From NCBI RefSeq assembly GCF_006345805.1, contig NC_042999.1:67022001-67086000 (forward strand): 64,000 bases of DNA. Reading direction: 5' to 3'. A program made the translations under genes and the position numbers. The DNA is from Octopus sinensis (taxonomy: Eukaryota). Below the pieces are notes generated by a model. The model saw only the letters and a list, made by a program, of their open reading frames with translations, did no database searches and was not told the DNA's origin. Of the stretch, positions 2,320 to 31,554 are shown one piece after another. The stretch's first letter is position 1. Every line of letters begins with the position of its first letter.

Positions 2320-3291
2320 ATTCTCGATTTTTAGTAAAAGTGTTTTTGGTAAAAGACATTTTGGTGACATTTTTCGCAGTTTTCTTCCTTGTTTTCCTCG
2401 GATATAGAACCTCTTTTTAGTACAAATGCAAAATTATTATGTAGGAGAATCTTGATACTGATGCCCAATGTGTCCATGAACCAATTTTTTTACAGATGCT
2501 GAAATACAGCTGTCACCGCCCAGATTGACATAAAGTGCTTAATAATTCATAAAACTATAATCTTAATAAACTGCATAATCAACAATGAAACATGTATTGC
2601 AGACTTACTTCACCTGGATCTTACCACTATTCTACATCAATTCACAGAATTAACTATTACGCTATTCTAAATAACATTGGCCCAATGCCTAGTCAAAATC
2701 AATCGCACACCTCAATAAATTTTGCTTGATTGAACTGAGAAGATCTTGATTAAATATGTAATAGGTAGACACTCCTGTAACTGTCCCTTTGCCAAGTACA
2801 TACAGGTTTGATAAGTGCGGTTGGCAGGAAAAAACATGAGGTTGCTAGTATTTTGTTGCGTTCAAACTTTTGATATCCCTTTCCTGACAACCAGCTCACC
2901 AAACAAACAATCAATCCATAAATAAAACCAAGATTAGTTCCAATAAAAAGTTGTTTCGTAATACCCTCGTATTTACAGTTGCATACATAATACTCTGCTA
3001 GCAAACATAGATACATAATTTATATATTTATACATACGAGTGTACACGTACGAAGGCGCTTGACCTGGTGGTTAATGTATTGCATTAAGGAGCACTGGGT
3101 CGTGGTTTCAATTCTCAGACCAGCGGTATGTTGCGCTCTTGAACAAAATATTTCACTTTCAAGTTACTAGGCACGTTCATTAAAGATTTCCTTTGACCCA
3201 CATCCGGTTATTGCAGGAAACGGAACTTGTACAGGTATAATTATACGTCATTTACATTCGATGGATATTTGCCCTCATCTTGTTTGCTTTT

Positions 3292-3337
3292 AACACAACG
3301 TTTCAGCTGATATACCCTCCAGCCTTCATCAGGTGTC
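3292..3337 (-). ncRNA. Minimal type I hammerhead ribozyme
   Basis: Minus strand: acac-CTGATGA-a-ggctg-gagggtatat-cagct-GAAAC-GTT-gtgt, with palindromic AACGTT stem III. Confidence 0.78.
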
Positions 3338-3392
3338 TTGAGGAAATTTTGAACCTGGATTCTCATTCCTAAGGTATTTTTCGATGTTGTTA

Positions 3393-3432
<40 letters not shown>

Positions 3433-3441
3433 TATTATTAT

Positions 3442-3482
<41 letters not shown>

Positions 3483-3563
3483 TCATGCTCGTGGACATAT
3501 GGCTTAGTGGTTAAGAGCACGGGCTACTAACCCCAAGATTCCGAGTTCGATTCCAGGCAATGA

Positions 3564-3620
<57 letters not shown>

Positions 3621-3687
3621 CTACAACAACAACAACAACATCGAAAAATACCTTAGGAATGAGAACCCAGGTTCGAAATTTCCTCAA

Positions 3688-3733
3688 GACACCTGATGAA
3701 GGCTGGAGGGTATATCAGCCGAAATGTTGTGTT
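3688..3733 (+). ncRNA. Minimal type I hammerhead ribozyme (one CpG-decay change)
   Basis: acac-CTGATGA(3693-3699)-a-ggctg...cagcc-GAAA(3721-3724)-T-GTT-gtgt. Confidence 0.72.
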
Positions 3734-5259
3734 AAAAACAAACAAGATGAGGGCAAATATCTATCGAATGTAAATAATGTAAAAAATTACATAATTCCTC
3801 ATCTCTTAAATATAGAACTGTATAATTATACGTCTCTACATGTCACATTGTAAATTGTAGCTTTCCGCTAGTATTCGTTTGTCTTTTACGACAGTTGAAG
3901 TGGACTAAGGTGTTATAACAGAGGCAGTTGAATGTAGATCCGTGATCAGGTTCTTATAATTGATAGGTCGTACACCAAGAGACTTTCAAGGAGATTAAAG
4001 AAGGTTATGGTGACGATACACCATCATACAACGTAGTCAAATGCCAGCATCGCTAGTTAAAATGTGGTCGGACATCAGTGGAAACTGCTCCTATTCCTGG
4101 ACGACCACATTCCGCCATTGATGACGATACCATCCATAAAGTGGAAGCCTCCATTTTGGAGGATCACCGCATAATTATTCGGTAACTAGCCCAAGAAGTG
4201 AAGATAAGAGTAGGTTCCGTGGAAAAAAAAATATTCATGACCATTTGCACATGCGGAAATTGTCTACACGATGGATTACCCAGATGTTCACACCTTTTCA
4301 GAAGCAGGAATGAGTCAATCGTTCCCAGTCACTTTTTGGTAATGTGCCAAGAAAATGTGAAGGACTTTTTCGGAAGACTTATCACACAGGATGAAACATA
4401 GGTCTATCACTATGATCTTGAGACTAAAGTCCAGTTGAAGCAATGGAAACGTAATAACTCACCACCTCCAAAGAAGGCTTGTGTCCAACCTTCAGCAGGC
4501 ATGGTGATACTCAGTCTTTTGAGACCAGCGCGGAGTAGTGCCGATGGATTTTCTGGCAATGGGCACCACAATTAACGAGGCATATTATGCTTCTCTGCTG
4601 CAGAAATTGCAGGGCGCCCTCAAAGCAAAGAGGCGTGGCATGCTGACCAAAGAAGTCCACCTCCTCCAAAACAATGCCGCAGTTCACAATGCACATGTTG
4701 CTCAGACGAAAGCATACTCTTGCAACTATGAAATCTTTCTTCATCTTCCTTATTCTTCCGATCTTGCACCATCTGACTTCCTCCTCTTTCCAACCATGAA
4801 GTCTTTTTTTGAAGGGGAAGCACTTTTCAGATGATGATGACCTTATTTCCGAAGTAAAGTCTTGGCTCCAGACGCAACCTACCAGCTTCTCAACAGACGA
4901 GGTCTTCACAGCTTCATAAAGCAATGAGAGAAGTGTGTCACCATTGGTGGTGACTATGTAGAGAAGGATTAATAATTATGTCAAGTTTCGTTTATCCCAG
5001 TCCTTGGGAAGTGGGTCATGGGAAAACTTTAATGAACGCCCCTCGTACCCCAGTCCAGTCAAATATAAATCGGTAACGGACTGGAGACAGAATGTTGGCC
5101 TGCTTGCCTAACCAGTGGGGTGGCATCATTCAAAAGCTACCGCAATACGAGGAAGCGCATCGTGACCAATGGTGTATAATAACATATGATAATCTAGTCG
5201 ATACAGTGATATAAATTCATATATATATACATACATACATACATATAAAGATATATATA

Positions 5260-5323: not shown

Positions 5324-5530
5324 ATCCAAACATGAAAACATAAAGAGAAAACACAACAACGCAGGGACGTGGAACAAGTATAGTGTTATGGACGCTCAGG
5401 AAAGGAAAGAAAGAAGGAGAACTTAACGTTTCGAGCGGAGCTCTTCGTCAGAAACATAGAAGGAAAGATCCAAGGAAGGGAAGACGGAGGGAAAAAATCA
5501 CCAACGGTACACACACGGTCACATTTTGAA
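5320..5530 (-). mobile_element. Solo pLTR-like fragment with minimal HHR (~5422-5454) abutting (TA)n
   Basis: Minus strand: ttt-CTGACGA-a-gagc-tcc-gctc-GAAAC-GTT-aag. The 3' end runs into (TA)n. Confidence 0.72.
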
Positions 5531-31273: not shown

Positions 31274-31554
31274 TTATTATTATTCAGGTCACTGCCTGAA
31301 ATTGAACTCGGAATCTTGGGGTTAGTAGACTGCGCTCTTAACTCGGAATCTTGGGGTTAGTAGACCAAGCTCTTAACCACTACACCATATGCCCACGGGC
31401 ATATGGAGTAGTGGTTAAGAACGCGGGCTACTAACCCCAAGATTCCAAGCCTGATTGCAGGCAGTGAATAATAGTAATAATAATAATAATAATAACTTCG
31501 AAAAATACCTTAAGAATGAGAACCCAGGTTTGAAATTTCCCCAAGACACCTGAT
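31274..31554. mobile_element. Second copy of the tRNA-head/HHR-tail element: two heads head-to-head, tail truncated in the HHR core
   Basis: Palindrome catatgccc-ac-gggcatatg centred at 31395/31396. Same ggctactaaccccaagattcc head and gaaaaatacc...gagaacccagg tail as 3490-3700. Ends at acacCTGAT. Confidence 0.8.

Follow-up and report, generated by a model that had tools for sequence, protein, structure and literature searches.

Structure of the insertion

In the window, by which we mean the whole 64,000-nucleotide stretch of Octopus sinensis DNA that was analysed, a 570-bp insert is flanked by perfect direct repeats on the plus strand at 3235–3249 and 3820–3834, identical at 15 of 15 positions, which an earlier sequence-only reading had taken for a perfect 15-bp target site duplication (TSD). 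The repeat stands, but since the right repeat shares as many as 3 nt with the element's own end, the true TSD measures 12–15 bp. Between the repeats lie two inverted arms, 90% complementary over 3241–3455 and 3570–3784, with five non-majority bases common to both. The left arm (3250–3482, minus strand) consists of the microsatellite linker and tail positions 1 to about 140, without the head, and includes a minimal hammerhead at 3292–3337 (minus strand) with an intact core (CUGAUGA..GAAACGUU) and features as described in PMC4209133. All the remaining features are on the plus strand: the leftover of a short palindrome (3485–3492), which sits 5' of the head in the autonomous parent described below and at the arm-to-arm junction in many copies; a tRNA-derived head (3493–3567); an (AAT)n/(AAC)n linker whose length differs among copies (3568–3640); and the first 161 nt of the reading frame of the parent, a Penelope-like element (PLE), from its first ATG at 3659 to 3819, which would be the distal start of reverse transcription. 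The parent frame runs through the right-arm minimal hammerhead (3688–3733), in which position 15.2 is U rather than C and a cut is predicted after 3728. Judging by the arm ends, 3781–3819 is the PLE 'tail', the 30–40 nt found on one arm only (PMC11167929, PMC8557442).

The head contains an A box (3500–3510), the anticodon-like arm ggg-ctactaa-ccc (3521–3533) and a B box (3545–3554), as the sequence-only reading had recognised, along with the (AAT)n linker, the tail with its minimal hammerhead and the inverted arm with a hammerhead of its own. The Rfam tRNA alignment includes both boxes and scores 17.6 bits, under the gathering cut-off of 29 (E 2.6). ARAGORN, run on the window, called no tRNA at the head, and comparison with 30 host tRNA loci, from six isotypes, brought out no clear best match for a donor. 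The head is best read as a decayed tRNA-derived sequence and not as a tRNA.

To the right, the insertion adjoins a decayed mariner-type transposase region (3835–4898, plus strand), a host element outside the family, with a PF01359 match at 4523–4831 (E 8e-8). The earlier placing of the insert inside an older mariner draws on its position in this mariner-like flank, immediately 5' of the decayed transposase; an empty paralogous mariner site was not present among the fetched loci. Just left of the insertion, at 3060–3125, a further tRNA-like stretch with A and B boxes can be read by eye and is probably a different SINE head. A distinct short T-rich repeat at 5335–5470 (minus strand) has its own minimal hammerhead and a (TA)n end; it has 2,050 candidates, and an ORF was absent in the 30 loci at which it was tried as a control family. 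The window also holds a second copy of the family, at 31280–31554 (no strand assigned), with two head-to-head heads, one of them internally duplicated, and a tail truncated at the first bases of the hammerhead.

The autonomous parent element

A search for a longer 3' extension common to the short copies found none, and the same search exposed the parent: at three of the 30 loci found with a tail-end pattern, a decayed RT/GIY-YIG frame runs into the head. The parent is 2.7 kb long, in the order head, (AAT)n, hammerhead, ORF with RT and GIY-YIG, a 35-nt UTR, and then head, (AAT)n, hammerhead and tail once more. An RT search gave 474 candidates, from which 40 RT-anchored copies were analysed. The repeat flanks the ORF at either end in two copies (L148 and L125), and in L146 the 5' repeat continues into the ORF. 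Nineteen of the 40 reach the ORF end; in 16 of these the head follows within 110 nt, in one it is partial, and two stop short of it. None of the 19 shows a headless parent end.

An open piece of 551 aa in one copy (L149) has 1,659 homologues with RVT_1 at E ≤ 1e-20; RVT_1 matches 21 of the 23 aligned members, and the decayed L149 piece on its own has no Pfam match. An intact 847-aa relative keeps the frame of the tail, with 40% identity across 211 aa that begin at the PKRC motif encoded by the hammerhead (E 8e-47). At the ORF end there is a GIY-YIG motif, YSIPCSCG..Y.GET; of the 23 aligned members two match PF01541 (E 0.0013 at best), so that the predicted GIY-YIG domain is weak by Pfam and clear by alignment. 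A PDB search returned weak matches to group II intron RTs only. By its PLE RT, its GIY-YIG domain, its terminal repeats (pLTRs) with minimal hammerheads, and its inverted arm and one-sided tail, the parent is to be classed as an EN+ Penelope-like element. It may belong to the Penelope/Poseidon clade, judging by its motifs and its distance (26–33%) to the other PLE ORFs of the genome.

The tail of the short element is thus the start of a PLE ORF, Penelope-type and not LINE-type as the sequence-only reading had proposed, and the pLTR that it suggested looking for in autonomous PLEs is present in the parent, in the same genome. Its picture of a SINE with a PLE as partner survives only in part: a PLE does the mobilising, but the head is carried by the autonomous PLE itself, in its pLTR, and a separate SINE is not supported. 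When 43 ORF-linked heads were compared with 73 short ones, the majority base was the same in every compared column; seven columns differed at P ≤ 0.01 in frequency only, and none survives about 260 tests. With one majority sequence common to both kinds of head, a SINE lineage of its own is not apparent, and the short element is the parent's pLTR plus 125–165 nt of ORF. Divergence is 0.057–0.067 for short copies and 0.077–0.085 for ORF-linked ones, a comparison biased by exact-match anchoring.

Proteins 53% identical to the RT-EN region of the parent are annotated in a barnacle (P0006 cluster), with others at 54–68% in further assemblies, so the clade of the parent extends beyond its octopus host. 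Contigs of four further organisms carry the parent 3' region at high depth; among the matches listed, one contig bridges UTR and head. A search by GIY-YIG family did not lead to the parent, its top 30 loci being other PLE types or host genes without the tail, and 19 of them served as within-genome PLE controls. Another PLE type of the genome (L067, L068 and GIY-YIG loci) has many long open frames of 780 aa and is probably younger; a pattern search found no canonical hammerhead after its GIY-YIG.

Copies of the family and their ends

Genome searches gave 2,780 candidates for the tail and 2,022 for the head, 40 of each being scored. A 19-nt head word has 5,401 exact matches in the genome (control, 0), and a word 53 nt upstream of it has 959, which puts short copies at about five to one over ORF-linked copies. 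In 28 of 30 genome-order copies the tail lies downstream of the head (two pairs being both arms of one insertion), and the linkage of head and tail that the earlier reading assumed holds genome-wide. The (AAT)n linker often hosts later repeat insertions (L041, L047, L096, L100, L109), in L041 a non-LTR RT fragment.

Most insertions are inverted pairs. In 61 of 68 two-arm insertions one arm ends at tail positions 140–162 and the other at 182–184; inverted arms whose ends differ by about 35 nt are a hallmark of PLE insertions. The one-sided tail of 30–40 nt is a signature of PLEs (PMC8557442), and in the Anolis PLE it marks two internal start sites of reverse transcription (PMC11167929). TSDs of at least 10 nt are present in 47 of the 68, against a shuffled mean of 2, with a mode of 12–13 nt and an AT content of 74%. 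The two arms of an insertion share 40 variants where the null gives 20.4 (22 against 8.3 for non-CpG variants), which gene conversion could explain. Sixteen complete junctions have the centres GT (7), AC (5) and AT (4), with arm orientation fixed. Simple fold-back as the only origin of the arms can be dismissed, since a single arm orientation shows both junction centres and the arms have only some tenth of their variants in common.

The 5' ends of the copies concentrate at the head. Of 30 genome-order copies, 23 end within −22 to +30 of tRNA +1, 12 of the 30 ends lying inside the head (+2 to +30), and 20 copies that were anchored a little upstream and extend past the tRNA start have their ends from −46 to −1455 (median −322); by arithmetic from these counts the rate of ending is about ten-fold higher at the head. 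Along the tail, 51 5' ends are spread out. The full-length copy L148 (the same as L441) begins exactly at tRNA +1, and it alone of the four copies with a 5' repeat keeps the start of the head.

An older sister PLE family, about 73% identical to the parent family, was recovered at 30 loci (about 77% identity) and at 17 loci with ORF ends. Its order is stop, palindrome, head, spacer, hammerhead and tail, as in the parent, a longer spacer replacing (AAT)n, and its head keeps both the A and the B box, the middle of the head having diverged. The match obtained in the first search for this family turned out to be an unrelated inserted repeat. At L094:440-925 a young element is inserted within a sister element; sister loci also include L231-L260 and L401-L417.

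The hammerheads

The hammerhead cores of the window are located at 3693 (plus strand) and 3332 (minus strand). The right one folds with helix I of 5 bp and helix II of 6 bp (z −1.43), and its core reads GAAAUGUU; the GAAACGUH core given for it earlier is intact in the left arm only, and as the right core reads GAAAUGUU, helix III of its dimer would be broken. Position 15.2 has C as its majority base, in 61% of 196 arms. The hammerhead of the parent has an extra base after A9, a G10.1–C11.1 pair and palindromic 15.2–16.2.

The predicted cut falls 91 nt before the long end of the element. Of the 51 tail-internal 5' ends, five are at the cut (positions 93–97), after a gap at 70–92, and they form no clear cluster. 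Three RNA-seq runs gave no pile-up of read ends at the cut, and the CpG sites of the hammerhead core decay freely across copies. Predicted self-cleavage does not set the copy ends, and the hammerhead is inherited. Since the cut falls 70 nt after the first ATG of the parent ORF, cleavage would remove that ATG. Tail position 90 (window 3725), which is hammerhead position 15.2, is lost in 23 of 52 short copies and in 5 of 33 ORF-linked ones (P 0.0085, uncorrected). Loss of ribozyme activity might leave head and reverse-transcription start together on one RNA.

Lack of TTTT in the sense strand

TTTT is the stop signal of Pol III. In 30 copies of the parent its sense strand contains 14 TTTT in 46,454 nt, with no site in more than two copies, and 12 further copies add 8 in 18,836 nt; the total of 22 in 65,290 aligned nt (0.34 per kb) comes from 42 copies that are one lineage and not independent, the 5' third resting on three to six copies. 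The ORF pieces of the sister family have 0 TTTT in 3,661 nt from 17 loci, which cover only 1,131 positions with a T content of 0.20, and its repeat has no TTTT column common to more than 4 of 30. Elsewhere the motif is frequent. Other PLE ORFs of the same genome have 48 in 15,114 nt (19 of 30 loci), and 80 outside relatives have 614 in 135,995 nt, 3 of the 80 being without TTTT in the matched ORF; 36 T-matched relatives average 3.07 per kb. All 21 outside units of ORF plus pLTR contain at least 5 TTTT each, and in none does a B box precede the hammerhead. A negative-binomial fit to the 80 relatives puts the probability of zero at 2–6e-4, where 'no shared TTTT' is counted as zero and the controls are single copies.

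A4 runs abound in the parent sense strand, which thus shows no general avoidance of homopolymers. Part of the lack of TTTT sits in codon use, the share of TTT being 0.26 against 0.53. Shuffling synonymous codons in three single-copy pieces gave differences that are not significant (0 observed against 1.0, 2 against 2.7 and 0 against 1.0). One outside PLE (L261; L309 is of the same family) has no TTTT in an ORF of 1,906 nt and no tRNA head, with a T-rich pLTR containing six, and another relative (L328) has none in 1,122 nt. A tRNA head was sought in outside relatives: the sole tRNA match in 10 loci (L318) lies ahead of T-runs and does not belong to the element.

How the copies may be made

The window insert is a two-armed copy of the pLTR, and its template RNA probably came from a Pol III start at the head. 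Two results speak for Pol III, the concentration of 5' ends at the tRNA start and the scarcity of TTTT, and the older sister family has both the head and this scarcity. At about even odds, the whole 2.7-kb coding RNA may be made by Pol III, in which case a tRNA promoter would have been swapped in, TTTT purged from the ORF, and thousands of SINE-like pLTR copies produced via internal initiation of reverse transcription, the protein being made without a cap and perhaps with help from the hammerhead. Pol III would start about 6 nt before the tRNA-like sequence. From the 5' repeat such a start would give a full-length RNA, which is possible because the sense strand lacks TTTT, and from the 3' repeats or the short copies it would give short RNAs ending in the flank. 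Both strands of the target would be cut by the PLE protein, with reverse transcription beginning within the RNA at two points, near +125 and +161 of the ORF. Internal starts of this kind occur with the Anolis element in vitro, and they would make a defined 3' end of the RNA unnecessary. The two cDNAs would then join head to head, often via the self-complementary 5' palindrome, and joining there would fit both the mix of GT, AC and AT centres and the modest excess of variants shared between arms. The short form would be SINE-like in behaviour, yet a by-product of the parent's own promoter. Depth in the three RNA-seq runs, which are unstranded and filed under a related label, is equal on both strands and follows genomic copy number, with 69–74% of reads continuing into unlike sequence and no pile-up of starts or ends.

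The main rival to a Pol III start is stalling of reverse transcription at the 5' hairpin, which is located at the 5' pile-up and could stall RT on any RNA. The head would then be a passive relic, a piece of SINE or tRNA caught once in the pLTR of a Pol II element, and the short copies would be 5'-truncations at such stalls. This accords with the heavy 5'-truncation of PLEs (PMC8557442), with the LINE-like internal promoter of D. virilis Penelope (PMC2377424), with the ends inside the head and along the tail, with the non-significant codon shuffles, and with an ORF such as that of L261, free of TTTT though headless. Nevertheless we consider it unlikely: under it one would expect neither TTTT to be nine-fold depleted across ORF and pLTR in two families nor both boxes to be kept while the head changed in its middle, and the folding of the head is not stable (z −0.29 and −1.0).

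A lineage of tRNA SINEs in its own right, with a tail borrowed from a PLE and moved in trans by a headless one, would suit the excess of short over ORF-linked copies, their slightly lower divergence (subject to the anchoring bias) and the non-majority bases common to both window arms, as if these came from a diverged source. It is already mostly refuted, and we give it little credence, as the parent itself has the head, headless parent ends are absent among the 19 and the heads hold no diagnostic SINE variants. Least credible of all is a retrozyme or Sm-alpha-like unit whose mobile form would be tandem monomers or circles cut by the hammerhead. The dimer-type features of the minimal hammerhead (PMC4209133) and the few 5' ends at 93–97 would agree with it, but the copies are inverted pairs and not head-to-tail arrays, their ends are not at the predicted cut, the CpG sites of the core decay freely, and the main substrate in Anolis is uncleaved RNA (PMC11167929).

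Relation to known elements

From their published descriptions, the EN+ PLEs of Anolis (PAc, PMC11167929) and D. virilis (Penelope, PMC2377424) resemble the octopus element in having one ORF with RT and, at its C terminus, GIY-YIG, a pLTR with a minimal hammerhead overlapping the ORF start, an inverted 5'-truncated arm, a one-sided tail of 30–40 nt and AT-rich targets. Unlike theirs, as far as those descriptions go, the octopus pLTR begins with a tRNA-derived head containing A and B boxes, the sense strand of the element is without TTTT, the ORF starts 37 nt before the hammerhead AUG and in another frame, and very many copies start at the head. Sm-alpha and Sj-alpha of Schistosoma, as described in PMC6765202, are likewise short non-coding retroelements in which a Pol III promoter is followed by a hammerhead; theirs are tandem units cut to monomers, whereas the octopus copies are inverted pairs with a minimal hammerhead and end at what would be PLE RT start sites, and the head is also found in an autonomous parent. 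The TRIMp3 elements Cassandra, Helenus and Ajax also have a Pol III promoter derived from a small RNA within a terminal repeat, but by the account in PMC10886601 they are non-autonomous LTR elements whose autonomous partners are argued to need Pol II, whereas in octopus the coding element itself holds the head.

Non-LTR retrozymes (PMC7229834; bioRxiv 10.64898/2026.07.22.740005) are, like the short octopus element, short, non-coding, hammerhead-bearing, related to pLTRs and dependent on PLEs; they are described as tandem and without a tRNA head, in contrast to the headed inverted pairs of octopus, and in the available text of the preprint both 'tRNA' and 'polymerase III' have 0 mentions. By the SINEBase definition (PMC3531059) tRNA-derived SINEs share a length of less than 700 bp, a tRNA head, a tail derived from the mobiliser and TSDs, and differ in that the octopus partner is a PLE, with no simple-repeat 3' tail and no lineage of its own. 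Our literature searches turned up neither a paper on a PLE with a tRNA head nor one on a coding retrotransposon made by Pol III, and repeat catalogues may already hold the family. The octopus SINEs OR1, OR2 and OK were reportedly described by Ohshima and Okada in 1994.

The accepted view, as PMC10886601 states it, has autonomous retrotransposons transcribed by Pol II and regards Pol III as too short-winded for them. On the sequence of its copies, we consider this PLE variant, whose pLTR has a tRNA-derived head, to be real. At the least, a numerous 'SINE' of this genome is the terminal repeat of a Penelope element. If the wider proposal is true, a protein-coding element adapted to Pol III would violate the Pol II-only rule for autonomous retrotransposons, would reveal one way in which SINE-like elements come straight from an autonomous one, and would offer a natural case for cap-independent translation beside a hammerhead, to be compared with the cap-independent translation after self-cleavage described for viruses (PMC13725137).
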